Assembly (NCBI GenBank): GCA_934130405.1
Contig: CAKOXX010000003.1
Span: forward strand, 13,643 to 77,642
Length of the DNA stretch: 64,000 nt
Direction: 5' to 3'
Source: an uncultured Bacilli bacterium
GTDB taxonomy: Bacteria > Bacillota_I > Bacilli_A > RF39 > UBA660
Below, piece after piece: positions 2,093-21,877 of the stretch (its first letter is position 1; every line of letters starts with the position of its first letter). The translations under genes and the position numbers were made by a program. Below the pieces are notes generated by a model that was not told the origin of the DNA, made no database searches, and was given only the letters and a program-made list of their open reading frames with translations.

Positions 2093-4393
2093 CTATTCTG
2101 TTCTAAGTGCAATAACTGGATCTTTTTTACTAGCCATCTTAGCAGGAATAAAACCACTAAGTACTGTTAAAGAAACACTAATTAGTAAGAGAATAATAGC
2201 ATGAATAGGATTAAGTTTAGCAACAGAAGCTAGTCCTGATAAATTTTCTATTATTTTATTAGCTGGAAATGTTAATAAATATGCAATAGTTAATCCTAAG
2301 ATTCCACTACATAAACCAATTAACATAGTTTCAGCATTAAACACTCTTGTTATGTCTTTAGCTCTTGCTCCTAAAGCTCTTAAAATTCCAATTTCCTTAG
2401 TTCTTTCCAAAACTGATATATAAGTAATTATTGCTATCATTATACTAGATACCACTAAAGAAATTGAAGAGAAAGCAATTAAAACTACTGTAATAGCATC
2501 CATTATACCACTTGATAAACTACTCATTAGTTTAGCCATATCGGTATAAGTTATCTTATCAGTATCTACTTTATTTTTATTATACCTATCTAAGTAACTT
2601 GTTATTTTATCTTTACTTTTAAAATCTTTTGGATAAAGATAAATAACTGCTGGAATTTCATCTGCTCCTAAATAAGCAAGAACATCATTCTTAGTTGTAG
2701 TATCATCAAAACTTGCTCCTGTTAAGATATTGTAATCTAATTCTTCTTGTCTCTTTACAATATCACTTGCTTTATTTATAGAAATAATCTTATCAACTAA
2801 TGCTCCTGTATAAAAAATAGCAGCTTGATTAGTAAACATTTCTTTATCTTCTTTACCCCTAATAATAGCTTTTATTTTAACAGTTATACTATTGGTACTA
2901 TTATACATTTTTTCATAATTACTATCAGGAATGAAGTTTGCCCCTAATTGTTTATAATAGTCATTATTAGTAATTAGTTTAATTTCTTTATTTAAGATAT
3001 CATCAAATGAGATATTTTTAGTTGAATCAAAGCCTAAACTTTCAATTAATGATTTATCAACACCATTTTTTGAATCTATTGCTAAAATTAAACCTATTTC
3101 TTTACTGTCAATACTACCAGCTAATACATCATAATTATCTTCCACTACACCAGTTTCTTTTTCACTAGTTCTAGTTGGAAATAATTGATATGACATACTG
3201 TTCGATATATCTATTTTTTTATAATTATTATCTTCATCCACAGTTACTAAATTAAGTCCAGTCTTTTTAAGATATGATATTCCACTCAAAAGATTTTTAT
3301 CAATACTATCTACGTAGTTTAAATAATCAGAAGTAATATTATTAGTATGAATCATTTTTTCCACAACTGATTCTGTTGGTTTTACTACCTTTTCATTTGG
3401 ATATTTATCTTTCTTATCAGTATTAGTTTGCATTTGTTCTTCAAGAGTTGATTCATCCATTTGCATAGCTTGACTACTAATAGTTATTGGCATTTGTGAT
3501 AAGGTGCTTTTCTCAAATTTATCTATTTGAAGTTGAAAACCATTTGATAAAGATAGAATTAAAGCAATACCAATTATTCCAATTGAAGCAGCAAAAGCTG
3601 TTAAAAAGGTTCTACCTTTCTTTGTTTTTATGTTATTAAAAGATAAATGAATTGCTGATAAATAACTTAATACTGTTTTTCTAATATGAACTTTACCAAG
3701 ATTTTCTTCTTCACTATTAATAGGATTTGAATCTGATAAAATTTTTCCATCTTTAAATTCTATTATTCTATTAGCATAGTCTTTAGCAAGCTCTGGATTG
3801 TGAGTTACCATTATTACCAATTTATCTTTAGCTATTTCTCTAATAAGATTCATTATCTGAACACTAGTAGCAGAATCAAGCGCTCCAGTTGGTTCATCAG
3901 CAAGAATTATATCAGGGTCATTTACTAAACTTCGAGCAATAGCTACTCTTTGCATTTGACCACCACTTAATTGATTAGGTTTCTTATAGGCATGGTCTTT
4001 TAAGCCGACTTTTTCTAAAGCTTCTAAAGCTTTTTCTTTCTTATTTTTTCTTTTATAGCCAGATAAAGTTAAAGCCATTTCCACATTTTCTAAGACACTT
4101 ATATGACTTATCAAGTTATAAGACTGAAAAATAAAACCGACACAATTATTTCGATAACTATCCCATTCTGTTGCTTTAAACTTTTTTGTACTTTTTCCAT
4201 TAATAATTAAATCACCAGAATCATATCTATCTAAACCACCAATTATATTTAGTAAAGTTGTTTTTCCACTACCTGAAGGGCCAAGAATAGCAACAAACTC
4301 ATTTTTTCGAAAACTTAAATCCACGTTTTTCAAAGCATGTTGAATAAAGTTGCCAGTTTTATAACTTTTATTTATATTTTTTAATTCTAACAT
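2093..4393 (-). CDS. fused ABC transporter ATP-binding/permease protein (MacB/FtsX-type)
   Basis: Walker A GPSGSGKTT, ABC signature LSGGQMQR and Walker B ILADEPT in the first ~225 aa. A large extracytoplasmic domain follows, and a C-terminal FtsX-like 3-4 TM bundle completes the protein. Confidence 0.85.
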   Translation of the reverse strand: MLELKNINKSYKTGNFIQHALKNVDLSFRKNEFVAILGPSGSGKTTLLNIIGGLDRYDSGDLIINGKSTKKFKATEWDSYRNNCVGFIFQSYNLISHISVLENVEMALTLSGYKRKNKKEKALEALEKVGLKDHAYKKPNQLSGGQMQRVAIARSLVNDPDIILADEPTGALDSATSVQIMNLIREIAKDKLVIMVTHNPELAKDYANRIIEFKDGKILSDSNPINSEEENLGKVHIRKTVLSYLSAIHLSFNNIKTKKGRTFLTAFAASIGIIGIALILSLSNGFQLQIDKFEKSTLSQMPITISSQAMQMDESTLEEQMQTNTDKKDKYPNEKVVKPTESVVEKMIHTNNITSDYLNYVDSIDKNLLSGISYLKKTGLNLVTVDEDNNYKKIDISNSMSYQLFPTRTSEKETGVVEDNYDVLAGSIDSKEIGLILAIDSKNGVDKSLIESLGFDSTKNISFDDILNKEIKLITNNDYYKQLGANFIPDSNYEKMYNSTNSITVKIKAIIRGKEDKEMFTNQAAIFYTGALVDKIISINKASDIVKRQEELDYNILTGASFDDTTTKNDVLAYLGADEIPAVIYLYPKDFKSKDKITSYLDRYNKNKVDTDKITYTDMAKLMSSLSSGIMDAITVVLIAFSSISLVVSSIMIAIITYISVLERTKEIGILRALGARAKDITRVFNAETMLIGLCSGILGLTIAYLLTFPANKIIENLSGLASVAKLNPIHAIILLLISVSLTVLSGFIPAKMASKKDPVIALRTE

Positions 4394-4450
4394 AATTCAC
4401 CTTCTCTTTATAAGTATATCATTATTTTACCTAAAATTTCCTCAATTGCA

Positions 4451-4477
4451 AAAGAAAAAACTGTTTTCCACAGTTTT
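4451..4477 (-). terminator. rho-independent terminator after the CotF-like cluster
   Basis: AAAACTG-N7-CAGTTTT hairpin overlapping the stop codon, followed by TTTTCTTTT on the minus strand. Confidence 0.5.
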
Positions 4478-4913
4478 ATAAGTATTCTTTTAGTTTATCC
4501 ACAGTTTTCTGTTGAAACTTTAAAAAGTCTTCGGCTAATTTCTTATCTTCCTTATTGGCTTCTTTAGTAAAGTCTTTGATTTTCTTTTCCATTTCAATAG
4601 AACCCATTGATACCCCTTTAATTAACATATCAGCTATAGCAGCATCGCTATTATCTTTCTTTACTTCCTTACTAATTCCCATAGTGGACATCATCTTGGC
4701 AATAAGTCCGTCTTCTTCTAGTTTGATATTTTCTTTTTTTAGTTGTTCCTTCGCTTTACTTTTAAATTCTTGATATTCTTTTAAAATATCTTCTGCTAAG
4801 CCTTTAATCTTATTATCTCTTTCTTTGAGTTCTTCTAATAAGTGCTCCATCGTATAACTTCCCATCGAAGCATCTTTATATATATGTTCTAATAATTCAT
4901 TTGTTTCTTTCAT
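4476..4913 (-). CDS. hypothetical all-helical protein (CotF-cluster associated)
   Basis: 145-aa Lys/Glu-rich helical ORF only 1 nt downstream of the CotF-like gene. I recognise no family motif with confidence. Confidence 0.45.
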   Translation of the reverse strand: MKETNELLEHIYKDASMGSYTMEHLLEELKERDNKIKGLAEDILKEYQEFKSKAKEQLKKENIKLEEDGLIAKMMSTMGISKEVKKDNSDAAIADMLIKGVSMGSIEMEKKIKDFTKEANKEDKKLAEDFLKFQQKTVDKLKEYL

Positions 4914-4914
4914 A

Positions 4915-5232
4915 TTATTCTCCTTCTATTTTTTCTTGTTCTTCTAATAACGTCTGATACTTTTCTGTGACTTTTATCTCTCCTGCTTCTTCTAATTTAT
5001 AAAAACCACATCTAAACATAACTTCAAATGTTTCTCTTTGTAGATTTAACAACTTATCATACATTTCTTTATATTTACTAAACAATTCTTCATTACTCAC
5101 TTCTGTTAAAGCTACTGTATAATCTTTAACCATAGCTTTTAGAGTTGTTAATAAGTCACTTATATAATCTTTATCATTTAGTTCTATTCCTTCTTCCACT
5201 TCTATCATAGTATTAGATATTTCTTTATTCAT
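4915..5232 (-). CDS. Coat F domain (spore coat protein F-like) protein
   Basis: NDKDYISDLLTTLKAMVKDYTVALTEVSNEELF...FEVMFRCGFYKLEE matches the CotF-domain pattern (N-D-x-D, L..EK, E.SN..L, GWY-like end). The start is moved to the ATG at 5232, which has a GGAGGAAG SD. Confidence 0.6.
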   Translation of the reverse strand: MNKEISNTMIEVEEGIELNDKDYISDLLTTLKAMVKDYTVALTEVSNEELFSKYKEMYDKLLNLQRETFEVMFRCGFYKLEEAGEIKVTEKYQTLLEEQEKIEGE

Positions 5233-5455
5233 GACTTCCTCCTTCATTTAGAATATCTAGTATGATATTCATATTTTCTTTAAAAGTATCTCCTGCTTTT
5301 TCTATTGTTTCTTCTATTTCTAGATTATTTATCATATCAATTGAATTAATCATTTTTTTATAAGCTAGATAATTCCAATTAAACATATCTTCTAAATAAT
5401 CTAAATCTTTTGTAGAAATAATAGTTGGTACTTTTTCATAATTCATTTTTATCAC
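5225..5455 (-). CDS. small hypothetical protein, first gene of the CotF-like trio
   Basis: 76-aa ORF overlapping the CotF-like start, with compact operon geometry. There is no recognisable motif beyond helical character. Confidence 0.4.
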   Translation of the reverse strand: MIKMNYEKVPTIISTKDLDYLEDMFNWNYLAYKKMINSIDMINNLEIEETIEKAGDTFKENMNIILDILNEGGSHE

Positions 5456-7336: not shown

Positions 7337-8005
7337 CTAATTTTTATTTATTAACTCATATATTTCGTTATGTATAGCATTTATATCTTTCATTTTACCA
7401 TTTTCACTACATTCTATTATATTCCAAGATAGATACTTTGCTACAAATAGGGAATTATCATATATTTTTTTCATATGTTTAACATTTCTTTCATAAATAT
7501 CATTCGCTATACCAGCATTATCCGGTCTTTCTTCTCGAAGCTTATTAACTAGTTCAAATGGTGCCGTTAAAAAGATAACTATATCTGGTTCTTTCATACC
7601 CAATTTGTTATATTCATAATCACTAGCATAATTAATAAATTTTGTTCTTTCTTCTATATTATCAAAAAATGCTGATTGATAAATTAAACTTGAAGTTGTA
7701 TATCTATCTAATAATAGAGTATCTCCTTTTTCATAAGCTGTTTTTAGTTTTGTATACCAAGTAATTGCTCTATCACTAGCATAAAGATTGTTTATAAAAT
7801 AAGGACTTAATTCATCTAATTTACCATAGTTTCCTTTTAGATATTCCTCAACACCTTTTCCTTGATAAACATTATAACTTGGAAAATGGTGTGTTGTTAC
7901 TTTGTTGTTATCTGCTAAGAGATGTTTATACAGTAATTCATATTGAGTTGTTTTACCTATTCCATCACAAGCACCTTCAATAACGATTATTTTTCTTTGA
8001 TTCAT
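7337..8005 (-). CDS. thymidylate (dTMP) kinase-like nucleotide kinase
   Basis: P-loop IVIEGACDGIGKTT, then FPSY...YL, YASDR and LLDRY motifs of the Tmk fold. The start is moved to the ATG at 8005 (GGAGGAATAAGA SD). Confidence 0.7.
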   Translation of the reverse strand: MNQRKIIVIEGACDGIGKTTQYELLYKHLLADNNKVTTHHFPSYNVYQGKGVEEYLKGNYGKLDELSPYFINNLYASDRAITWYTKLKTAYEKGDTLLLDRYTTSSLIYQSAFFDNIEERTKFINYASDYEYNKLGMKEPDIVIFLTAPFELVNKLREERPDNAGIANDIYERNVKHMKKIYDNSLFVAKYLSWNIIECSENGKMKDINAIHNEIYELINKN

Positions 8006-8096
8006 TCTTATTCCTCCAGCCATTTTATTGTTTTCATTAATTATTATAGAAAATTCTAAAATAATATACAACTATTTTGAAATACAAAAACTTTTA

Positions 8097-9293
8097 CTAA
8101 ATTTTTTTTAATATTTTTCTAATAACTAGTGATTCTTTTGGATATTCTTCTAATCTACCTTTATTTTCATTTATTATAATAGGAGGAATAAAATCGATAT
8201 GCCACCCATTACTTATGTAATTGCCAAATTGATTTTCATAATCAATGCAACTGGTAGTAATAGTTTTTGTAGTTTGACTGGATATTTTATGAAAACCACA
8301 ACACCTTACTAATAAATCTTCCATTCCTAGTTCTTCAATATAATTTAAGTCTTCAACATAATTAGAGGACTTTTCTTTTAATTCTTCAAAAAATTTATAA
8401 AAGCAAATATGAGCATTATAAATACCTAATATTAATTTGATTAACTGTTTATCATAACTTTTGTTATTATCAAAACCAGGAAAATTATAAACTAAATTCA
8501 GCCCTTCTTTATAATCAAGATGAGTTATAAAACCATTTGAATTTATGATAGAGACTTTTTTTAGATAATATTTTGAAGTAGATTTTTTACTTAAATTTTG
8601 CTCAATTTCATCCATATAAGCATATTTTAGATTTGCTTCTTTATGACCAGTTTCTCCCATAGAATTATATAATTCACCAGATGGTGTAATATACCAAGAA
8701 TCAGGTAATAAAAACTGTATTTTTTTAGATTTTGCTGATATGATTAACTTATGATTATTCAATTCATTAATTTTTTGATTTATTTTCTTTTCTATGGTTA
8801 ATGATAATTTTCCTTGAAATCTTGCTACAGTTTTTACGGCAGTAAAATATTCAATTAAATCTTTTCTATCATTCAAAAATATCTTTGAATTGAGCAAATA
8901 GATATTTAATATTGAAGTAACGTACTGATATAAATAATCATAATAGTTATCTCCTGATGCTGAATAATTAAATTTTGTTAAAAGAAAATCAAGAACACAT
9001 TTAAAAGAATTAGAAATATCACATGTTTCCAAATTACTGCCTGCCAGATATTTATTAGCTATTTCATCAACATCAAAAAAGGTAAAGGTTTCTACTTTAT
9101 CAAAATTCCAAGAAACGGTATTCATATATAATAAATCAAGATTCCTTATTATATTAAACAATTCAAGATTTGTTTGATAATAATTTAATGGTATTGAGTT
9201 AACTTCGAGTTTGTAATTATTTTTATCATTATTTTCAAAAAATGTTAAATATTGATTTTTTCTATCTTCTAGTTCTTTATAAAATTCAATCAT
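8097..9293 (-). CDS. hypothetical protein (398 aa, no recognised family)
   Basis: Long uninterrupted ORF 6 nt downstream of the NUDIX gene stop, cytoplasmic with no TM. Notable segments are GETGHKEANL and LLVRCCGFHKI. Confidence 0.55.
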   Translation of the reverse strand: MIEFYKELEDRKNQYLTFFENNDKNNYKLEVNSIPLNYYQTNLELFNIIRNLDLLYMNTVSWNFDKVETFTFFDVDEIANKYLAGSNLETCDISNSFKCVLDFLLTKFNYSASGDNYYDYLYQYVTSILNIYLLNSKIFLNDRKDLIEYFTAVKTVARFQGKLSLTIEKKINQKINELNNHKLIISAKSKKIQFLLPDSWYITPSGELYNSMGETGHKEANLKYAYMDEIEQNLSKKSTSKYYLKKVSIINSNGFITHLDYKEGLNLVYNFPGFDNNKSYDKQLIKLILGIYNAHICFYKFFEELKEKSSNYVEDLNYIEELGMEDLLVRCCGFHKISSQTTKTITTSCIDYENQFGNYISNGWHIDFIPPIIINENKGRLEEYPKESLVIRKILKKI

Positions 9294-9299
9294 AATTAC

Positions 9300-9767
9300 C
9301 TATATTTTTTTAACATAAGCTCCATCTATTTTGCAATCATATGTTGTTATACTTTTATCTTTTAAAAACTCTCCTTCATAATTAATAAAAGGGTTAGGTA
9401 AATCATTAATGTCAGCCCATATTAATTCATCACACTTATCTTGTTCTACTATTGATGGGACACTTTGATATTTTGATATTTCAAAGTAATAATCAATGTA
9501 TGGTTCTAATTTTTTTCCATCAATTTCAAAATAATTTCTTCTTAATACTACATAACTATTAATTATATCTTTAGGATTAATTTCAATACCTAGTTCTTCT
9601 TTGGCTTCTCTAATTAGGGCTTCATACTGATTTTCACCAACATCAATATGACTAGCTGGAAGAGCATAATATCCAGGCCATAATTTTGTCCCTTTTCTTT
9701 TTTGGATTAATAGTTTATCATTATTCATTATTATCATATGGACAGCACTTTTAAACATTTCTTTCAT
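9300..9767 (-). CDS. NUDIX hydrolase
   Basis: Nudix box GENQYEALIREAKEELGI (Gx5Ex7REUxEExGU). The likely start is the ATG at 9767, whereas the ORF track begins at an upstream TTG at 9776. Confidence 0.85.
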   Translation of the reverse strand: MKEMFKSAVHMIIMNNDKLLIQKRKGTKLWPGYYALPASHIDVGENQYEALIREAKEELGIEINPKDIINSYVVLRRNYFEIDGKKLEPYIDYYFEISKYQSVPSIVEQDKCDELIWADINDLPNPFINYEGEFLKDKSITTYDCKIDGAYVKKI

Positions 9768-9882
9768 TTGAGACAAGCCTCTTTCTCACATTAATTAGTA
9801 CTTATTAAATTTAAAAGAACTACTCTCATTAATTCGAAAGTAGTAATATGTTATCTCGAAATAATCGAGTTTAATACTTATT

Positions 9883-10260
9883 TGGTGGAGATGAGGGGTA
9901 TCGAACCCCTGTCCAAAAATAGAGCTACATAAACTTCTACAAGTTTAGATTGTTTATTAAATTCAAATTATAGTAAAGAAACAATCAACCAAACTACAAT
10001 TCTAGTCTTATAATATTCAGCTATTTACTAAGACGATAAATAACTATATCTTACTAAAGTGAACCGTACAATCTTAACGTAAGAAATTAAGAAAGACAGC
10101 GTACAAGCCTATTCTTAGGCAAATGCTAAACTAGTGTTTCCACCAAAGTTTGCAAGTACATTTTTAATTTTGTTTCCAGTTATTCTGGTTTAATCTGTAA
10201 CGTAGATAATTCGACTTGCCATCTATGCTCTACTATTCCTGTCGAATCCAAGACATCCCC
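9883..10260 (-). ncRNA. ssrA: tmRNA (SsrA)
   Basis: 5' GGGGATGTCTTGGATTCGACAGG and 3' GGACAGGGGTTCGATACCCCTCATCTCCACCA form the tRNA-like domain. An internal tag frame reads ...GNKIKNVLANFGGNTSLAFA-TAA. It lies directly downstream of smpB. Confidence 0.9.
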
Positions 10261-10299: not shown

Positions 10300-10746
10300 T
10301 TACTGATACTTTATTTGTTTAGCTATATCCCTATTAATATCACGTTCTTTAATAGTTTCTCTCTTATCGTAATTTTTCTTACCACGACAAACACCAAGTT
10401 CTACTTTAGCTCTTCCTCTTACAAAATATATTTTTAATGGTATTAATGTATAACCTTCTTGTTCCACCTTCACAGCTAATTTCTTAATCTGTTTTTTATG
10501 AAGTAATAACTTTCTACTTCTTGTCTCTTCGTGATTAAATAAATTACCTTCTTCATATGGTGCAATATACATATTAACTAGAAAAACTTCATCATTTTTA
10601 ATTCTGGCATAACAGTCTTTTAGATTAGCACTACCTTTTCTAATTGATTTTATTTCTGTTCCTTTAAGAACAATTCCACACTCTAATGCTTCATCAATAA
10701 AGTAGTCATGTCTTGCTTTTCTATTTAGTATTTCCACATTTATCAC
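10300..10746 (-). CDS. smpB: SsrA-binding protein SmpB
   Basis: [15 protein letters not shown] and LLLHK motifs, 148 aa, adjacent to ssrA. Confidence 0.95.
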
Positions 10747-11934: not shown

Positions 11935-14028
11935 CTAAATCTTTTTAACAATTTTAAAATCTATAGTTTTTGCTTGTTTATTAGCTGCTACTACTTTAAT
12001 TCTTACTTTTTCACCAATTGTATAACGTATATTTGTTCTTTCACCAGTTAAAGTCATTCTCTCTTCATCATAAACAAAATAATCATCTAATAATCTAAGG
12101 GGTACTAGTCCTTCTATTAAATTATCTAATTGAACAAACATACCAAAACTCATAACAGAAGAAATCATTCCATCATATTCTTCACCAATATGACTTTCCA
12201 TATATTCAGCCATCTTCATATCTTCCACTTCACGTTCACAATCAATAGAGGCACGTTCCATTGCAGAAGAATGATCTGCCACAAATATCAACTTTTCTTC
12301 CCAATGATGAAGAGTTTGAGGAGACATATCATGATTAAATAAGTAAGTTCTTAATAATCTATGAACAGTTGTATCTGGATATCTTCTAATTGGAGACGTA
12401 AAGTGGGTATAACAAGGACTAGCTAAACCATAATGTCCTAAATTCTGTGGTAAATAAATAGCTTTTTGCATACTTCTTAATAATAAGCTCGATAGAATAG
12501 GAAATTCTTTTTTATCTTTTAAACTATTCAAAATATGTTGAACAGTAGTTGGTTTATTATCTTTGATATTTCCAGTAATATGATAGCCAAGATTACTAAC
12601 AAAAGCCAAGAAACTTTGAATTCTTTCTTGTTTAGGATACTCATGTACACGATAGATAAATGGTAAATTCATATAGAAAATATGGCTTGCAACACATTCA
12701 TTAGCAGCAATCATAAAATCTTCTATTAAATTTTCGCCAAGACCTCTTTCTCTTAATACAACGTCAGTTGGTTTACAGTTTTCATCTACTAATATTTTAG
12801 GTTCATCAACATCAAAGTCAATATAACCACGTTTGGTCTTTGCTTTTCTTAAAATTTGTGCCAACTCTTCCATTGTTCTTAAATCATCAGCAAACTCTTC
12901 ATATCCTTCTGGAACAATATTTTTTTCTATTATGCTATTAACCTTTTTATAAGTCATTTGCTTCCTTGATTTAATAACGCTTTCAAAGATATCATAATCA
13001 ACTAATTTTCCTTGATTATCATACTCCATAACACAGCTTATTGCTAAACGGTCGACATTAGGATTTAAAGAACAAATACCATTTGATAACTCATGCGGTA
13101 ACATTGGAATTACTCTATCTACAAGATAAACTGATGTTCCCCTATCCATTGCTTCTTTATCAAGTGGACTTCCTTCTTTAACATAGTATGAAACATCTGC
13201 TATATGAACACCTAATAAATAATTACCATTTTCTTTTTTATCTATACTAACAGCATCATCAATATCTCTTGTATCATCACCATCAATAGTAAAAATTACT
13301 TTATCACGTAAATCTCTTCTTCCCTTCATATCAGCTTCTGATACTTCCATTGGTAAAGTTTTTACTTCTTCTACCACATCTTCTGGAAAACTACTATTTA
13401 TATGATATTTTTCCACAATAGATAAAATATCAACACCTGGATCATTTTTATGTCCAATAATTCTTAAAACTTTACCTTCTGCTTGATGATTACTAATTCT
13501 TTTAATTATTTCTACTACTACTTTATGTCCATCTACAGCATTTAAAGAATTTTCTTTACTTATTAATATTTCTAGATTAACTTTATCTTCATCTAATTTT
13601 ACTTTTCCAACATTTTTATAAAAGTTAATTTCTCCAACAAAAGTATTAGTTTCGTGCTTTAATACTCTAATTATTCTACCTTCTAGACGGCCTAAATCTT
13701 TTTTAGAAGTTAATTCTACAATTACATAATCACCATGAATAGCTCCATTCATATTATCAGCACTAATATAAACATCCTCAGTTAATGAATCAACATCTAC
13801 AAAACCAAAACCTTTTTTATTTGAGTGTAAATATCCTTTTAATAAGTGACTATCTTCGAATAACATATATTTATCTTTATTAGTATGATAAATACTTGTT
13901 TCTATTTCCATCTCATTTAAAATAGATAATAATTCTTCTAAGTTACTAGTACCCAGTTCTTCTTCTAATTCAAAGACTGTTAAACTTTTTCCTTTTTCTT
14001 TTAATATCTTTAGTATTCTTTCTTTCAT
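11935..14028 (-). CDS. rnr: ribonuclease R
   Basis: 697 aa with a cold-shock-like N-terminal region, an RNB catalytic core (IDGDDTRDIDDAVS) and a C-terminal S1 domain. Conserved position upstream of smpB. Confidence 0.95.
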   Translation of the reverse strand: MKERILKILKEKGKSLTVFELEEELGTSNLEELLSILNEMEIETSIYHTNKDKYMLFEDSHLLKGYLHSNKKGFGFVDVDSLTEDVYISADNMNGAIHGDYVIVELTSKKDLGRLEGRIIRVLKHETNTFVGEINFYKNVGKVKLDEDKVNLEILISKENSLNAVDGHKVVVEIIKRISNHQAEGKVLRIIGHKNDPGVDILSIVEKYHINSSFPEDVVEEVKTLPMEVSEADMKGRRDLRDKVIFTIDGDDTRDIDDAVSIDKKENGNYLLGVHIADVSYYVKEGSPLDKEAMDRGTSVYLVDRVIPMLPHELSNGICSLNPNVDRLAISCVMEYDNQGKLVDYDIFESVIKSRKQMTYKKVNSIIEKNIVPEGYEEFADDLRTMEELAQILRKAKTKRGYIDFDVDEPKILVDENCKPTDVVLRERGLGENLIEDFMIAANECVASHIFYMNLPFIYRVHEYPKQERIQSFLAFVSNLGYHITGNIKDNKPTTVQHILNSLKDKKEFPILSSLLLRSMQKAIYLPQNLGHYGLASPCYTHFTSPIRRYPDTTVHRLLRTYLFNHDMSPQTLHHWEEKLIFVADHSSAMERASIDCEREVEDMKMAEYMESHIGEEYDGMISSVMSFGMFVQLDNLIEGLVPLRLLDDYFVYDEERMTLTGERTNIRYTIGEKVRIKVVAANKQAKTIDFKIVKKI

Positions 14029-14078
14029 ATGTACCTCACTATAATCTTATTGTACCACATTAGTACTAAATTAAACTA

Positions 14079-16037
14079 TTATTTTTGAGTATCAACTTTC
14101 ATTTCAAATAGAATATTTCTTAATTCCATTGCACGTTCAAAGTCTAATTCTTTAGCAGCTTTCATCATTTCTGTTTCTATTCTTTCGATTTCGTTTAATC
14201 TTTCTTGTTTAGTTAATTTCTTAGTTTTTTTCTTGCTAGCTTTATCTACATTACTTACTACTTCTCTTATTTCTTTAACGATAGTTTTAGGAGTTATATT
14301 ATGTTCTTTATTATACTTATCTTGAATAGTTCTTCTTCTTGCTGTCTCATCAATGGCTTTTTGCATACTATCTGTTATTTTATCAGCATACATAATAACG
14401 TGACCATCTTTATTTCTAGCACAACGACCTATCGTTTGAATTAAGCTTCGCTCGCTTCGTAAAAATCCTTCTTTATCAGCATCCAAGATAGCTATTAATG
14501 ACACCTCTGGTATATCAATTCCTTCTCTTAAAAGGTTTATTCCAACAACTACATCATATTTACCAATTCTTAAGTCATGAATAATTTGTAAACGCTCTAA
14601 AGTTTTAATTTCCGTATGTAAATAAGCTACCTTAATATCAACATCTTTTAAATAATTAGTAAGTTCTTCTGCCATTCTAATTGTTAAAGTTGTAATTAAA
14701 ACTCTTTCATTTTTTTCTTTTCTAATTCTTATTTCTTCTATTAAGTTATCAATTTGTCCTTCAGAGCCTCTTACTTCGATAGTAGGGTCAAGTAAACCTG
14801 TTGGTCTAATAATTTGTTCAACATACTCACCATCTGTTTTTAGAAGTTCATAATCTCCTGGTGTTGCTGATACATAGATTGCTTGATTTATCTTCTTTTC
14901 AAACTCTTCATATTTTAATGGTCTATTATCTAAGGCACTCGGAAGCCTAAAACCATAATCGACAAGATTCATCTTTCTAGCCCTGTCACCATTATACATT
15001 CCTCTTACCTGTGGTAAAGTAACATGTGATTCATCTACAATTAGTAAATAATCATCATTAAAGAAGTCCATTAATGTGGTTGGAGTTTCTCCTCTTTCTC
15101 TACCAGCCATTGGGGCAGAATAGTTTTCTATTCCGTGACAGAAACCAGTCTCTTCTAACATTTCTAAATCATAATTTGTTCGTTGTTCTAATCTTTCTGC
15201 TGCTAATAATTTATTTTCCTTCTTTAGTTCCTCTAATCGTTCTTTTAACTCACTTTTTATTCTTTTAATAGCAGCTTTTAATTTTTCATCACTCACTACA
15301 AAGTGACTAGCAGGAAAAATACTTATTGTCTTTTTATTAGTAACAATTGCTCCTGTTAAAACGTCTATTTCACTTATTCTATCTATTTCACTACCAAAAA
15401 ACTCAATTCTATAACCAGTTTTATCTTGGTTAACTGGTATTATTTCCACTATGTCACCTCTTACTCTAAAAGTTCCACGATGAAAGTCAAAATCATTTCT
15501 TTCAAATTGCATTTCTACTAGTTTAGCAAGAACTTTATCTCTTTCAATTTCATCACCTATACTAAGAGTTAACATTTTATTTTGATATTCTTCTACTTCT
15601 CCAATACCGTATATACAAGATACTGATGCTACAACTATAGTATCTTTATAAGTTAAAAGTGAAGATGTAGCTTCGTGACGCAATTCATCTATTTCATCAT
15701 TTATGGATGAATCTTTTTCAATATAAGTATCAGTACTAGGAACATATGCTTCAGGTTGATAATAATCATAATAGCTAACAAAATAACAAACATGATTATT
15801 AGGAAATAATTCCTTCATCTCAGCATATAACTGACCTGCTAATGTCTTATTATGTGCAAGTATTAAAGTTTGTTTATTGGTTCTTTGAATAACATTTGCC
15901 ATAGTAAAAGTTTTACCTGTTCCTGTAGCACCTAGTAATACCTGTTCTTTTACTCCAGATTCTATTCCTTTAACTAATTTTTCTATCGCTTGTGGTTGAT
16001 CTCCACTTGGTTTAAATTTTGATACTAATTCAAACAT
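14079..16037 (-). CDS. uvrB: excinuclease ABC subunit B
   Basis: Full-length 652 aa with GATGTGKTF Walker A, DESH, helicase motifs and a C-terminal UVR domain (...[12 protein letters not shown]...). Confidence 0.97.
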
Positions 16038-16042
16038 ATCTT
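15877..16042. repeat. 166-bp direct repeat, copy 1 (uvrB codons 1-54 plus 5 nt upstream)
   Basis: Hand alignment with 17475-17640 gives 161/166 identical. All 5 differences are synonymous. Confidence 0.9.
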
Positions 16043-16252
16043 GTCCTCCTTATTATGACTCATATCAATCAGAAAATTCGTGTCCTAGAGCCGATTAAAT
16101 AGGTCAAAATTTTGGTGGATAGTGATGGTCTCACGTCTCGGCTACAAATTTATTAAATGTAAATGAATAATTAATTTTTTCAATAGATTATTTTAACATT
16201 ATTTTAATAATAAAACAATGAAGCTACTTTAATGCCTATCATTTTTGTCAAA

Positions 16253-17284
16253 TTATCTGAAGGACCTTTTTATATTACTTTCTGCTGTTTCTCTATCAAC
16301 ATTTCTATACTCATCATTTGTATATTTATCAAGTCTATTCATATCAAAATCAAATAAGAAATTATTAGATCTATATTGTTTAACAATTTGATTTTCTTGC
16401 CAATTTTGATACTTAGCATCTAAAATTCCTAGCAAAGAACTTACTACTATTTCTTTTTTCTTATGTGGAAAATTAACCCAAAGCATAGCATTTTCAACTC
16501 TAAATAAAGTATGTAAAATGTATAAGCTTTCAATTTGATTTTTATATTCCTCTGACAAACCTCTTAATTCCATTTGTTTTTCTACATTTTCCAAACATTT
16601 AATTATATCTAGAATATTAGGAATTTTGTTAATAAAATCTTTTATAGTTGTATTCATATTAACTCTATAATTATAAACAGGTTCATCCATATGAAATAAT
16701 TTTTCAGAACTTGCTACAATAACAGGTATAATTGCTAGATCTTCCCATTTTGTTTTTTCTGGAAATCTTAAATCACCTATTAAATCACGACTTATCAATT
16801 TATTTCCTATTCCAGGAGTTTCTGTTACTATATAATCTTTAATTTTTCTTACATCTACAACTTTGCTACCTTGTACATCACTCCAACTACATTTATCCTC
16901 TGCTCTAATTGGTCCTATTATAGTTTGATAATTTCCCCTAACTAATTTAACATTATGTTCTTTAGCAATGTTATACATTTTTTCTAAAATGTCTGTTTTT
17001 AGATAATCATCTGCATCAACAAATTTAATAAACTCTCCATTTGCATTTTCTATTCCAATATTTCTAGCAGACCCTGCCCCACCATTTTCTTTATCAAAAA
17101 TTTTTAACGTACCTTTATATTTTTGTGATAATTCATCTAATATATTTAAACTATCATCAGTTGAACCATCATTAATTACAAGTATTTCAATATCCTTCAT
17201 AGTTTGATTAGCTATACTTGAAATACATCGTTCTAAATACCTTTCTGCATTATAAACTGGAATAATAACACTAACTTTTCTCAT
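16253..17284 (-). CDS. family 2 glycosyltransferase
   Basis: VIIPVYNAERYL...INDGSTDDS...VDADD (GT-A fold, DxD) at the N-terminus; 343 aa. Confidence 0.85.
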   Translation of the reverse strand: MRKVSVIIPVYNAERYLERCISSIANQTMKDIEILVINDGSTDDSLNILDELSQKYKGTLKIFDKENGGAGSARNIGIENANGEFIKFVDADDYLKTDILEKMYNIAKEHNVKLVRGNYQTIIGPIRAEDKCSWSDVQGSKVVDVRKIKDYIVTETPGIGNKLISRDLIGDLRFPEKTKWEDLAIIPVIVASSEKLFHMDEPVYNYRVNMNTTIKDFINKIPNILDIIKCLENVEKQMELRGLSEEYKNQIESLYILHTLFRVENAMLWVNFPHKKKEIVVSSLLGILDAKYQNWQENQIVKQYRSNNFLFDFDMNRLDKYTNDEYRNVDRETAESNIKRSFR

Positions 17285-17443
17285 CTAATTTATCCTCCTA
17301 TTTTTATATTTTTACTCAAAATAACCACAATTTCAAATCAATTTTTTAAGACACGAATGGATACGAATTTTGGTCACAAATTTACATTTCGTTATATATT
17401 TTTATTTAGTCTTTTTATAGTATTTTTGAGGGATTGAATAAAC

Positions 17444-17635
17444 CTAAAAACTGTTGAAGTAAAAGTTTTTTAGGTTGGTTCTCTGGATAACGTTTGCCAT
17501 AGTAAAAGTTTTACCTGTTCCTGTAGCACCAAGTAATACCTGTTCTTTTACTCCAGATTCTATTCCTTTAACTAATTTTTCTATCGCTTGTGGCTGATCT
17601 CCACTTGGTTTAAATTTTGATACTAATTCAAACAT
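17444..17635 (-). pseudogene. truncated duplicate of the uvrB 5' end (54 codons, then 9 unrelated codons and a stop)
   Basis: Encodes [54 protein letters not shown], identical to UvrB residues 1-54. It then diverges (LKNFYFNSF-stop). Confidence 0.9.
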
Positions 17636-17640
17636 ATCTT
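17475..17640. repeat. 166-bp direct repeat, copy 2
   Basis: See copy 1 at 15877-16042. Confidence 0.9.
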
Positions 17641-17704
17641 TCCTCCTCATCTTTATTATAAACAGTTAATATATATTTTTCCCCATTTCTTATGAATTAT
17701 CTAT

Positions 17705-17733
17705 ATTATAATTATCAAATATACGTTCGTCAA
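17705..17733 (-). promoter_or_regulatory. sigmaA-type promoter with an overlapping LexA (Cheo-box-like) site, upstream of the truncated uvrB copy
   Basis: The minus strand reads TTGACG-17 nt-TATAAT. The motif CGAACGTATATTTG (17716-17729) overlaps the -35/spacer and matches the first half and spacing of the Bacillota LexA box CGAAC-N4-GTTCG. The second half is degenerate. Confidence 0.5.
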
Positions 17734-17767
17734 TAGTTTTTTTACAAAAAGAAAAGAGTAACTTCTT

Positions 17768-18505
17768 TTATAAAGTCTTACTCTTCTTTACATTTGACAT
17801 TCTTTCTTTTATCTCTTTCATCTTCGCTTCATTTGGTTCAAAATGTTGCCAATCACAAGACCATTCATCCCTCTGTAATGGCCATATTCCTCCACATTCA
17901 TAACCAACACTATCAAATACTTTACAAATAGAATCATTAAGAGTGATAATATGTTTATTCTCTTTGGCTTTTTCTTCTCTATCAATCAATAAACTCTTCT
18001 CATAATCAGTCAATAAACTATCATCAAATGTTCCATCACTATTTCTTGGTGTATATGGATTATCTAATGGATTAATATCAATAGCAAGTCCATAAGCATG
18101 ATTTGATAAAGTAGTTCTATTAGGTATCGTTCTATAACAAAAACTACTACTATTATTACTTGCAACGCTATTTCTATCAGTAGTTACACCATCTTTATCC
18201 CAAAAATCATCTATTAAACGCATAGAATTGATTTGATACTTTAATAAGAATAAATTAGAAAATACTTCTCGTACTTCATCAATTATTACTTTATTAACAA
18301 TCATCTCACCTACTACTACATCACCATCATAATTATAATGTAACATCTTAATATATGTTAAATCATCAAGAGATATGTCATCATTCGTTTGATAACTCTT
18401 TCCATTTATTCTTTGATAAACATCATCATTTTCCTTTATGTCTTTATTTTCAAAAATAAATTCTTTAGAATTAACTTTTTCTCCAATTTTTAAATTATCT
18501 AACAC
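17768..18505 (-). CDS. M15 family zinc metallopeptidase (VanX/VanY-like D-Ala-D-Ala peptidase fold)
   Basis: SNHAYGLAIDINP (SxHxxGxAxD) and DWQHFE motifs. No signal peptide. Confidence 0.75.
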   Translation of the reverse strand: MLDNLKIGEKVNSKEFIFENKDIKENDDVYQRINGKSYQTNDDISLDDLTYIKMLHYNYDGDVVVGEMIVNKVIIDEVREVFSNLFLLKYQINSMRLIDDFWDKDGVTTDRNSVASNNSSSFCYRTIPNRTTLSNHAYGLAIDINPLDNPYTPRNSDGTFDDSLLTDYEKSLLIDREEKAKENKHIITLNDSICKVFDSVGYECGGIWPLQRDEWSCDWQHFEPNEAKMKEIKERMSNVKKSKTL

Positions 18506-19024: not shown

Positions 19025-20452
19025 CTACTTCACTTCCTTTTTATATAATTTTTTATTTTTTTCTTTTAAAACAACTTGATAACTTTCATCTTTCTTTAAA
19101 TAATAGTATAAAGAGTCATCATCTTCTACTATAATATAATCAAAATCATATTTTTGCAAAAACTTTTTATAATTAATTGTTCCTTTCTTAACTTTACAAG
19201 CCTCATCAAAAATATCTTCTTTTCCATTATTCTTTTTAATAAATATTTCTGCTCTACTATCCATATATGGATGATAACCACTATATTCAAAGTAAGAACC
19301 ATTATTATAATCAGCATAAAGTTTTATATCTTTACTAGCATATTTATCAAGATAGTCAATATACTTTTGATTAGTATTTTTTAAGTAGTATTTATTATTA
19401 TTTATGTTAATACCTAAAATCAGCAAAACTATTACTATTTCTGAGATATATAATTTGGTAGGTATTTCCTTAGCAGCTGTTTCTTCAAATGGTAAATAAA
19501 TACTAAGATAAGGTAAAACACAAGCATAGAAGATACTTATATTTCGAAAATTAGAGAAAGCCATATAAATTATTCCAAAGCTCAAAAATATCTGTCTTAT
19601 AGTTGGTTTCTTTTTACTAAAAATCATAAAACTTAATAATATAAATAACGATACTAAAAAAAAATGATTAGGTAAGTCTAAAGGTTCTTTAAAGGTCAAA
19701 TTAGACATTTCTATTATTTCTTTGTTGATAATATCAACTCCATAGGAAGTAAGAGAGTAAAACATATTCTTTACACCATAAGGATTAACAAAACCAGCTA
19801 AAAAAGATATAAATAATATTACTATTAGTTTAGATATTCTTTTATCGTGTTGTTTATAATATAAGTAGAAAAGTTCTACTAGAAAGGGCATACTAAATAT
19901 GAATAAACATAACCACATCGAAGCATGAAAGTTAATTAGTAATAACGATACTACTGGTAACAGATAAATAGCTTTACTATTTTTCTTTACAAATAATTCT
20001 AATATATAGATGATAATAATAAATAGTAATAAGCTATATAGAAATGGCCTTGGTACTAGGAAGAATGTTTGCAATAATATATCAATAACACAAACAGTTA
20101 TTACTGAGTTAAAAACTTTGTTATCAGTTATTAACATACATAATTTGTATAGAAAATACATTATTAATAAGTTAACACCAAATACTAAGAGAAATAGTCC
20201 TGTCCCCCCTAGGACTTTATAAACAGAATAAAACGATACTGCCGATAACCATTGTTGCATTACAAATGATAAGTTACTATGCATCGATAAAAAATCATAT
20301 TTAGGAAAACCACTAGTTAAGACTTTTCTACCATAAGATAGTAAAAACCAAACATCACTTTCTTTATTACTATAAGTATTAAGCATAACTACAATAGGTA
20401 AGAGAAAATATAAGTAACATAAATATTTACTTGGTTTATATTTTTTAAACAT
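19025..20452 (-). CDS. polytopic membrane protein, GT-C-like (paralog A)
   Basis: About 12 predicted TM segments plus a ~110-aa C-terminal soluble domain. Clear paralog of 20462-21877, sharing [46 protein letters not shown] and KYDFDY. The function is inferred only from topology and neighbours. Confidence 0.5.
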   Translation of the reverse strand: MFKKYKPSKYLCYLYFLLPIVVMLNTYSNKESDVWFLLSYGRKVLTSGFPKYDFLSMHSNLSFVMQQWLSAVSFYSVYKVLGGTGLFLLVFGVNLLIMYFLYKLCMLITDNKVFNSVITVCVIDILLQTFFLVPRPFLYSLLLFIIIIYILELFVKKNSKAIYLLPVVSLLLINFHASMWLCLFIFSMPFLVELFYLYYKQHDKRISKLIVILFISFLAGFVNPYGVKNMFYSLTSYGVDIINKEIIEMSNLTFKEPLDLPNHFFLVSLFILLSFMIFSKKKPTIRQIFLSFGIIYMAFSNFRNISIFYACVLPYLSIYLPFEETAAKEIPTKLYISEIVIVLLILGININNNKYYLKNTNQKYIDYLDKYASKDIKLYADYNNGSYFEYSGYHPYMDSRAEIFIKKNNGKEDIFDEACKVKKGTINYKKFLQKYDFDYIIVEDDDSLYYYLKKDESYQVVLKEKNKKLYKKEVK

Positions 20453-20461
20453 CTAAATCAC

Positions 20462-21877
20462 CTACTTTTTCTTATATAAATAGCTATTTTCTACTTTTAG
20501 TATTTTTTCATATGATTTATTATCTTTTAAATAATAATAAAGTATCTCTTTATTACTAACTACTAAATAATCAAAGTCATATTTTGCTAAAAATTTTTCT
20601 GGTTTTAATTTTCCTCTCGCTAGCTTATAGCATTCATTCATTACATCATATTTTTTATTATTGGCTTTGACAAAGACTTCCACTCTTCCATCCATATAAG
20701 GATGATATCCATCAAATACATAATACGAGCCATTATCGTTATTAGCATAAAGTTTTATATCTTTTGTAGCATTTTTATCAAGATAATCAATCGCTTTTTG
20801 ATGAGGGTTTTTCAAAGTATAGCTTCCTGTTGCAATATTAACTATTAATATAGTTATAACTATTGTAGAAGTTATCATAAAATATTTACTATATTTTCTT
20901 TTATCATCTTCTAGGTCGCTATTTTCAAAAGGAAGATAGTTACTATAAAATGGTAAGGCACCAATACAGAAAAAACTTAAGTTTCGAAAGTTTCGTAAAG
21001 CCATATAAAATGTTCCAAAAATAAGTAATACTTGATGAATAGAGGCTTTCTTCTTTATTGACATATAAATATTTAAACCAAAGAAAGTTATCAGTAAAAC
21101 GTAATAAGCAGGAGATAAAACACCACTAAGTGTAAATGGTGACATTTCCATTACAGTTTCATTTATCGCTTTTATACCATAACTAGATAAAGCATAAGTC
21201 ATACTATTAATTCCATACGGGTTAATAAAGCCTACTAGAAAGGATATAATTAATAAAATTATCAATTTAACTATTTTTTTATCTTTCTTTAATAAAAATT
21301 CTGCTACAAATGGCATACTAAAAATAAAGAAACAAAGCCACATCGAAGCATGTAAATTTATTAATAGTAATGATAAAAGAGGAAGTAGATAGATGCTTTT
21401 TTTATTTTCTTTTCGATATATTTCAAGGATATAAATAAGTAATATAAATATCAAAAAAGTAAATATTTGTGGTCTTGAAGTAATGAAGTAAGTTTGTAAA
21501 AGAATATCAGTAACAGAAGCAGTTATAACAGAATTGAATGTCTTATTTGAAGATATTTTCATACAAAGTTTATAAAGAAAATAAAGGATTAAACAGTTCA
21601 CAATGAATACTATTAAATATATTCCTACTCCTCCTAAAGCTTTATAAGAAAGGTAATAAATTATATCAGATAACCACTGTTGAACTACTAAAGAAAAATT
21701 ACTATGCATTGATAAAATATCATTATGTGGAAAACCATTTTTTAATATATATCTACCATAACTTAAGATAAACCAAATATCTCTTTCTTTAATAATTATT
21801 ATCATTGTAGAAAGTAATACTGGAATAAAAAAGTATAAATAAGATAAATATTTACTTGGTTTATACTTCTTAAACAT
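20462..21877 (-). CDS. polytopic membrane protein, GT-C-like (paralog B)
   Basis: See paralog A. The start overlaps the stop of the upstream FAD oxidoreductase gene by 1 nt. Confidence 0.5.
   Translation of the reverse strand: MFKKYKPSKYLSYLYFFIPVLLSTMIIIIKERDIWFILSYGRYILKNGFPHNDILSMHSNFSLVVQQWLSDIIYYLSYKALGGVGIYLIVFIVNCLILYFLYKLCMKISSNKTFNSVITASVTDILLQTYFITSRPQIFTFLIFILLIYILEIYRKENKKSIYLLPLLSLLLINLHASMWLCFFIFSMPFVAEFLLKKDKKIVKLIILLIISFLVGFINPYGINSMTYALSSYGIKAINETVMEMSPFTLSGVLSPAYYVLLITFFGLNIYMSIKKKASIHQVLLIFGTFYMALRNFRNLSFFCIGALPFYSNYLPFENSDLEDDKRKYSKYFMITSTIVITILIVNIATGSYTLKNPHQKAIDYLDKNATKDIKLYANNDNGSYYVFDGYHPYMDGRVEVFVKANNKKYDVMNECYKLARGKLKPEKFLAKYDFDYLVVSNKEILYYYLKDNKSYEKILKVENSYLYKKK

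Follow-up and report, generated by a model that had tools for sequence, protein, structure and literature searches.

How does a DNA-repair gene come to be preceded by a second copy of its own 5' end, with a glycosyltransferase gene between the two? This question is raised by the uvrB locus of the stretch analysed here, 64 kb of DNA from an uncultured Bacilli bacterium of the human gut (hereafter, the window). The 1.6-kb unit found at this locus is, very probably, an integrase-less derivative, similar to a cis-mobilizable element (CIME), of a family of tyrosine-integrase elements whose target, in uncultured Bacilli of the gut, is the 5' end of uvrB.

The genes for UvrB, for its truncated upstream copy (the stub, uvrB') and for the family-2 glycosyltransferase (GT2) are all on the minus strand (coordinates in Table 1). 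The repeat finder recovered a direct repeat of 166 nt whose two copies are identical at 161/166 positions (97%) and spaced 1598 nt; since the other repeat families of the 7-kb region do not exceed 36 nt and 67-85% identity, it is far beyond chance. Each copy comprises 5 leader nucleotides and uvrB codons 1-54, and in the alignment of the copies the likeness runs on, with a 1-nt indel, into the Shine-Dalgarno GGAGGA. The five differences (nt 42, 105, 144, 150 and 153 of the uvrB coding sequence) are all synonymous changes of third codon positions. In this segment, 22% of the possible substitutions are synonymous, and five out of five would occur by chance with a probability of 0.224^5 = 5.7e-4. 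The upstream copy reads through 54 UvrB codons and then through 9 unrelated ones (LKNFYFNSF) to a stop, giving a 63-aa stub (17444-17635), and the spacer of 1432 nt between the copies (16043-17474) contains a single open reading frame (ORF), of 343 aa. The base composition of the cassette is not distinctive. An earlier note on this DNA had reported the repeat with its five synonymous differences, a single GT2 gene between the copies, the truncation of the upstream copy after nine unrelated codons, and a TTGACG-17-TATAAT promoter lying only upstream of the truncated copy. All of this held: the repeat in the repeat finder and the alignment, the single gene as one ORF matching Pfam Glycos_transf_2, and the promoter as the top match of the promoter scan.

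Both ends of the cassette recur in other genomes. The left end was found in the window and at four other loci, in other metagenome-assembled genomes (MAGs), always directly after a truncated uvrB 5' copy. It contains a hairpin (17441-17476; -9.8 kcal/mol, z = -2.9, with UUUAUU after it), the motifs TTTAGGTTTATT and GTAAATTTGTGACC, and a tandem repeat ATTCGTATCC/ATTCGTGTC at 17350-17368. The right end, about 190 nt upstream of the full-length uvrB (16043-16235), is conserved in five loci. Its GACACGAAT box is the inverse of the left-end ATTCGTGTC repeats, an arrangement to be expected if these are arm-type sites flanking an attP attachment site. What lies beyond the left end varies. At loci L105/L157 and L170 there are genes for ParA, a ParB-like protein and a 1220-aa surface protein (adhesin); L177 carries a 2.4-kb cassette with a thymidylate-kinase (dTMP-kinase) fragment, a UDG-family gene and a MazG-like gene, followed by an intact uvrB and with no integrase; and L094 carries the same GT2 gene as the window. 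Between the window and L094 the cassette is 88% identical in nucleotides and the adjoining uvrB 5' end 77%, which argues that the cassette moves as a unit between species. The left-end motif gave no match in the viral contig collection. As a marker of the element the 18-nt left-end motif TTCGTATCCATTCGTGTC was rejected, because it is also present in many Verrucomicrobiota, Planctomycetota and other MAGs (L158-L185); outside the element it belongs to short tandem arrays of CCATTCGT(A/G)T that often end in CATTCGTGGTTAA, a widespread and unrelated intergenic repeat.

The link to integrases came from L170, where the right end directly follows the C-terminal half of a tyrosine recombinase (PF00589, E=1e-20). 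A search with this integrase found full-length homologues, whose genomic contexts were then read. At L170, L186, L188 and L192, the right-end motifs directly follow a gene for a tyrosine recombinase bordering on a uvrB copy, and the stretch between the integrase stop and uvrB shares with the right arm of the window AAGTTTGTGAC, one or two CAACGAATTT/GACACGAATTT boxes and TTGGTTGATA..ATCATAA.AAGGAGG. The gene order at L186 is uvrB' (92 aa), ParA fragment, DUF5684, integrase and uvrB. At L188-L191 it is uvrB', ParA, ParB, DUF5684, integrase fragment, a further uvrB', GH25 lysin with small genes, integrase and uvrB, and at L192 it is integrase, a 70-aa ORF, uvrB', ParA, ParB, SpaA adhesins, RadC with further genes, and uvrB. 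Tandem accretion of this kind has been described for integrative and conjugative elements (ICEs), integrative and mobilizable elements (IMEs) and CIMEs (PMC5704250), and the arrays of L188-L191 and L192 show that pattern. The integrases of this family are generic phage-type enzymes that score far below integron-integrase cut-offs. As judged from their sequences, the ends of the window cassette are probably homologous to those of the integrase-element loci at uvrB (L170, L186, L188, L192, L157). A tyrosine recombinase stands beside the attachment site in L186, L188 and L192 and as a remnant in L170; there is none in the window cassette, in which GT2 is the sole functional gene between the uvrB repeats, with no genes for integration, excision or transfer. 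Conserved ends combined with the lack of a recombinase fit the published definition of a CIME (PMC5704250).

The circular form of such an element would carry an attP built on the uvrB leader and the first ~54-90 codons, and site-specific recombination would probably take place in the Walker-A-coding stretch, at uvrB nt ~112-134. After recombination, attL would hold the native promoter and the truncated uvrB', and attR the intact uvrB, with its ribosome-binding site, first ~40 codons and probable promoter derived from the element. That the copies differ by synonymous changes only would follow from the element-borne codons becoming the N-terminus of a working UvrB. The earlier note had read these differences as the mark of a functional donor allele; the coding constraint stands, and it is better explained by an element that supplies the UvrB N-terminus. 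Regeneration of the target is seen in that filled and empty strains encode the same 652-aa UvrB. In the absence of a recombinase, the window copy would depend for its movement on an integrase acting in trans, on accretion with an element that arrives at the site, or on homologous recombination.

The position of the exchange was approached by comparing the upstream with the downstream uvrB copy inside each locus. The copies of L188 show 23 differences through nt 111 and almost none beyond, those of L186 show 3 differences through nt 66 and then 29 starting at nt 135, and those of L177 differ through nt 75 and not again until nt 196; for L009, another filled lineage, a switch is needed between nt 105 and 144. 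A crossover within nt ~112-134 would satisfy all four, and is a position that we infer, not a mapped site. This stretch codes for the Walker-A motif and includes a palindrome, GGTAAAACTTTTAC, whose nucleotide sequence is highly conserved.

Exact-protein look-ups with GT2, the stub and UvrB provided a comparison between strains. Among 24 contigs encoding an identical 652-aa UvrB, the cassette was present in 16 and lacking in 8. In the empty state, an M15 peptidase gene, the native promoter and uvrB are contiguous, with an intergenic gap of 132 nt, and this unoccupied site with the native promoter upstream of an intact uvrB was seen on five distinct contigs. Thus, the comparison with relatives lacking the insertion, which the earlier note had proposed, returned empty-site strains with the promoter directly before the intact gene. 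At the five diagnostic sites, empty strains read GATTA, the upstream copy of the window GTCCG and its downstream copy AATTA. On their sequences, the two window alleles are a reciprocal chimera with respect to GATTA, as would be left by one exchange, whether GATTA was the allele into which the cassette integrated or the one restored by its deletion.

These alleles bear on the alternative that survives best, namely that the ancestor of the species already had the cassette and that deletion between the 166-bp repeats later produced the empty sites, so that the polymorphism records loss. We consider this a possible, though not the favoured, course of events. GATTA does combine the 5' part of the upstream copy with the 3' part of the downstream copy, as a deletion would give, and filled strains are the majority (16/24) and occur in at least three flank lineages. 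However, integration gives the same allele pattern, in which the direction is unreadable, and the nearest named relatives (L014-L017, MAGs of uncultured Erysipelotrichaceae or 'Bacilli' with 69-81% UvrB identity) have uvrB without the cassette. Moreover, this alternative speaks to which way the change ran, not to origin, and fits a descent from integrase elements.

Homologous recombination has also left its traces within the species. Compared with the window, strains L012 and L104 are 96-97% identical over 1.5 kb of upstream flank and, in 500-nt windows, mostly at least 99% identical over the cassette and the downstream flank, bar one variable block; the left breakpoint falls inside the stub. 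In a 5-kb downstream alignment, filled strains fell into three lineages that are mutually no closer than they are to empty strains, and formed no clade. The pattern suggests that the cassette has been exchanged by homologous recombination within the species, or repeatedly gained and lost. The upstream copy reads GACCG in L009, and in L012 and L104 it is more divergent and ends in ..ATCG.

The earlier note had explained the locus by a single crossover with a circular or foreign fragment. A one-off, RecA-dependent integration of the Campbell type, by a circle or fragment bearing a uvrB 5' segment from a related lineage and no dedicated sites, would indeed produce reciprocal chimeric alleles; the apparent crossover points differ between strains, a recombinase is absent from both cassette and window, and homologous recombination is clearly active at the locus. 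Yet it offers no reason for the conservation of the non-coding flanks in four other species, where they border varied cargo and always lie at uvrB 5' copies, or for the position of these flanks beside tyrosine integrase genes and in tandem arrays. Nor is the insert bounded by the segment of homology alone, as it has element-specific ends with repeated and inverted motifs. We therefore judge such an event improbable: of the single-crossover model, the topology of a circle with a uvrB 5' segment is retained, in agreement with the reciprocal chimera, and the stray fragment recombining by mere homology is not, in view of the conserved element ends.

Several observations weigh against descent from site-specific integrase elements. 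In the window species, the apparent crossovers vary between three strains (nt 42-105, 105-144 and 144-150), which a fixed site-specific crossover does not predict; an extra mutation in the window lineage and an import by homologous recombination in L012 are needed. Under the integrase-element origin, the element's own segment would carry A42, C144, C150 and G153, the T at nt 105 of the stub would be one later change, and the L012 pattern would come from homologous recombination. The window repeat ends at codon 54, short of the codons ~88-91 reached in most relatives, so some of the attL side may be missing from the window; the junction and the beginning of the left end have AACCA in common, and a small deletion could therefore be the cause. 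An integrase of this family was not found in the 64-kb window. Neither an excised circle, nor a donor allele, nor an integrase-bearing parent of the GT2 cassette was found in the JGI metagenome scan and the stub look-up: the donor-type allele (CCG, alone or joined to the left end) had 0 matches in the former, and the exact 63-aa stub appeared only in chromosomal context in the latter. Phage and plasmid collections returned just generic GT2 similarity and uvrB itself. Three records of the phage collection (OR846742.1, OR846593.1 and MT837702.1; L197-L199, unverified) contain full-length bacterial uvrB, likely host DNA, and were discarded as attachment sites. Finally, the putative core site, arm sites and promoter are proposed from conservation.

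A wider version of the proposal, in which a pool of minimal integrase-less cassettes (GT2 in the window and L094, UDG/MazG in L177) is shuffled in trans by resident or incoming integrases at the uvrB 5' end in the manner of an integron, with regulatory rewiring, seems to us rather unlikely. If true, occupancy would rewire control, nucleotide excision repair losing a possibly damage-inducible native promoter and a surface glycosyltransferase gaining it. The L177 cassette (CAKOSH010000010.1, about 2890-5270) is a second integrase-less cassette at uvrB, in another species, and places nucleotide-hygiene cargo beside a repair gene. Two distinct uvrB fragments lie 0.9 kb apart at L105 (9323-9421, codons ~57-89, and 10305-10571, codons 1-88), with a decayed GT2 copy, an EEP-family gene and an SGNH-like gene upstream, which points to several rounds of insertion and decay at the uvrB site.

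The weakest alternative, an assembly artefact or a collapsed or mis-joined repeat, which the earlier note had named as a refutation, can be set aside almost entirely: several GT2-bearing contigs of other MAGs do stop at or near the gene, and L094 is only 1785 bp long, but the same uvrB'-GT2-uvrB arrangement is found on many contigs of 78-297 kb from independent human-gut metagenome assemblies made by different assemblers, the copies differ at 5 positions and share no exact match beyond about 62 nt, which the assembly k-mers exceed (k141 in contig names), and empty and filled alleles both assemble cleanly.

Occupancy of the site has consequences for expression. The native promoter sequence is also found directly upstream of the intact uvrB in the empty-site strains; in the window, it would now read the uvrB' stub and be uncoupled from the full-length gene. 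The earlier note had found no promoter before the full-length uvrB, but the right end contains a conserved extended -10 promoter-like motif, TTGTTT-17-TGTTAAAAT (16190-16218), ~155 nt before the uvrB start, which is the best candidate for an element-supplied uvrB promoter; an invariant TCATAAT just before the ribosome-binding site is a second candidate. The terminator-like hairpin that follows GT2 in relatives is weak or degenerate in the window. GT2 could be transcribed from the weak promoter-like site of its own or by read-through from the native promoter, and the junction hairpin (17441-17476) could terminate weakly. The reading of the GC-rich flanks as RNA elements was dropped: scanned permissively against Rfam, 15500-18200 yielded no gathering-score match (three matches at E 3-10 were far below it, at chance level), and the right arm has nothing unusual in its RNA structure (z = 0.1).

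The earlier note had also placed the native promoter under SOS control by LexA, which found no support. The LexA-box-like CGAACGTATATTTG (17716-17729) has 2 mismatches among the 10 fixed positions of CGAAC-N4-GTTCG, and sites as good as this number five in the 64-kb window, although it is the only one that overlaps a promoter-like site. No CGAAC box was found upstream of uvrB in the relatives L014-L017, nor any LexA homologue in a search of the 64-kb window with a LexA query. A loss of SOS control of uvrB is possible.

The N-terminal GT-A domain of the GT2 protein resembles many glycosyltransferases of the cell wall or envelope and of teichoic acids, including TarP and TarS; none of the NCBIfam models matched at its curated cut-off. 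Orthologues with 60-94% amino acid identity occur as single genes in unrelated neighbourhoods of other gut Bacilli MAGs, some of them beside an apparent IS30-type transposase, or beside a large serine recombinase and a Mob_Pre-type relaxase, these enzymes being named by N-terminal sequence alone. Such contexts fit an accessory, mobile gene. The cargo, a polymorphic envelope glycosyltransferase, may now be read from the former uvrB promoter; enzymes of this sort often alter immune recognition or the receptors of phages.

Table 1. Features of the uvrB locus in the window, with positions counted from its first nucleotide
Feature	Position	Strand	Evidence or remarks
Intact uvrB, 652 aa	14079..16037	-	Full set of UvrB Pfam domains
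Downstream direct-repeat copy, putative attR side, 5' end of the expressed uvrB	15877..16042	-	Alleles AATTA
Putative right arm: AAATTTGTAGCCGAGACGTG; GGACACGAAT (16076-16085, inverted with respect to the left-end repeats); TTGATATGAGTCATAATAAGGAGG and uvrB ribosome-binding site	16043..16154	-	
Right-end start: degenerate terminator-like hairpin and T-tract overlapping the promoter-like motif	16186..16235	-	Conserved, 5 loci
GT2 cargo, 343-aa family-2 (GT-A fold) glycosyltransferase	16253..17284	-	Pfam Glycos_transf_2 PF00535, E=1e-34
Weak promoter-like site before GT2, TTGAAA-17-AAAAAT, 9/12	17308..17336	-	Region conserved in L094 cassette
Conserved left end, ~125 nt	17350..17474	-	81% mean column identity, 5 loci of different species
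Upstream direct-repeat copy, putative attL side, 63-aa stub	17475..17640	-	Pfam ResIII N-terminal fragment; alleles GTCCG
Walker-A-coding palindrome GGTAAAACTTTTACT in the candidate crossover window	17501..17515 (second copy 15903-15917)	-	Inferred from switch points
Native uvrB promoter, TTGACG-17-TATAAT, 11/12 in promoter scan, best in region	17705..17733	-	

Around the cassette, further features were noted. On the minus strand (11935-16037), uvrB is followed by genes for RNase R, a PGA_cap-family protein and SmpB; uvrA, which in the usual Firmicutes arrangement forms uvrBA, is not in that position. Upstream of the cassette, two paralogous membrane proteins of ~470 aa (19025-20452 and 20462-21877, minus strand; ~67% nucleotide identity to each other, no Pfam or NCBIfam match) form a hypervariable pair: identity is 65-74% in L012 and L104, and L012 has a single gene in their place. 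The pair adjoins a PRK07208-family FAD oxidoreductase and may belong to a variable cell-surface glycan locus beside the cassette. Just downstream of smpB lies the tmRNA gene (9883-10260, minus strand). The genes that follow it (7337-9776: NUDIX, a 398-aa unknown and a thymidylate-kinase-like gene) are strain-variable, other strains having unrelated ORFs that include a Mob_Pre relaxase fragment in L013, and ssrA looks like a second integration hot spot.

Taken as proposed, the uvrB 5' end around the Walker-A codons would be an integration hot spot for tyrosine-integrase elements in uncultured Bacilli of human and animal guts, where insertion at the 5' end gives a core repair gene a new promoter, ribosome-binding site and N-terminus. 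Of the strains sampled in the window species, about two thirds probably express uvrB from element-supplied signals. For annotation, 'ResIII' stubs of 63-92 aa beside uvrB mark element boundaries. In the literature searched, uvrB was not found named as an attachment site.

Several known systems offer points of comparison. Like integron cassettes, the unit consists of a single promoter-poor cargo gene between recombination sites, with the integrase encoded elsewhere; unlike them, it has no attC-type hairpin, IntI, attI or common promoter, and its ends are attP-arm-like and tied to uvrB. Closer in target are the SpyCIM1-type islands at the 5' end of mutL in Streptococcus pyogenes, which have their own integrase and whose reversible excision toggles repair. 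Both elements sit at the 5' end of a DNA-repair gene, between the gene and its upstream promoter, but here uvrB is rebuilt intact with element signals, and no excision was detected.

Closest in organization are CIMEs, which together with tandem accretion are known from ICE and IME attachment sites, for example in the ICESt1/ICESt3-related islands of Streptococcus thermophilus (PMC5704250). As in CIMEs, attL/attR-like ends of an integrase-element family are kept with the cargo and the genes for integration and transfer are lost, and as at CIME sites, whole, decayed and minimal elements occur in tandem among the uvrB relatives. The target differs, being the uvrB 5' end here in place of the 3' end of fda or of a tRNA gene. 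The uvrB cassette further differs from known CIMEs in that it must bring a ribosome-binding site, N-terminal codons and probably a promoter, in its unusually small size (1.6 kb), and in that its mobilization is putative. Tyrosine-integrase islands and prophages split their target and restore it from element sequence, a principle stated for tRNA and tmRNA targets (PMC4383910). The uvrB unit shares with such islands a displaced fragment at one end and a regenerated gene at the other, with the element-borne copy under coding constraint; it departs from them in that uvrB is protein-coding and its 5' instead of its 3' end is replaced, whereby the native promoter is uncoupled. The mechanism belongs to a well-known class, that of site-specific elements which split and restore their target, here as a CIME-like remnant at an accretion hot spot. 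The unusual part is the target, the 5' end of uvrB at its Walker-A codons, which forces the element to supply the expression signals of the gene.

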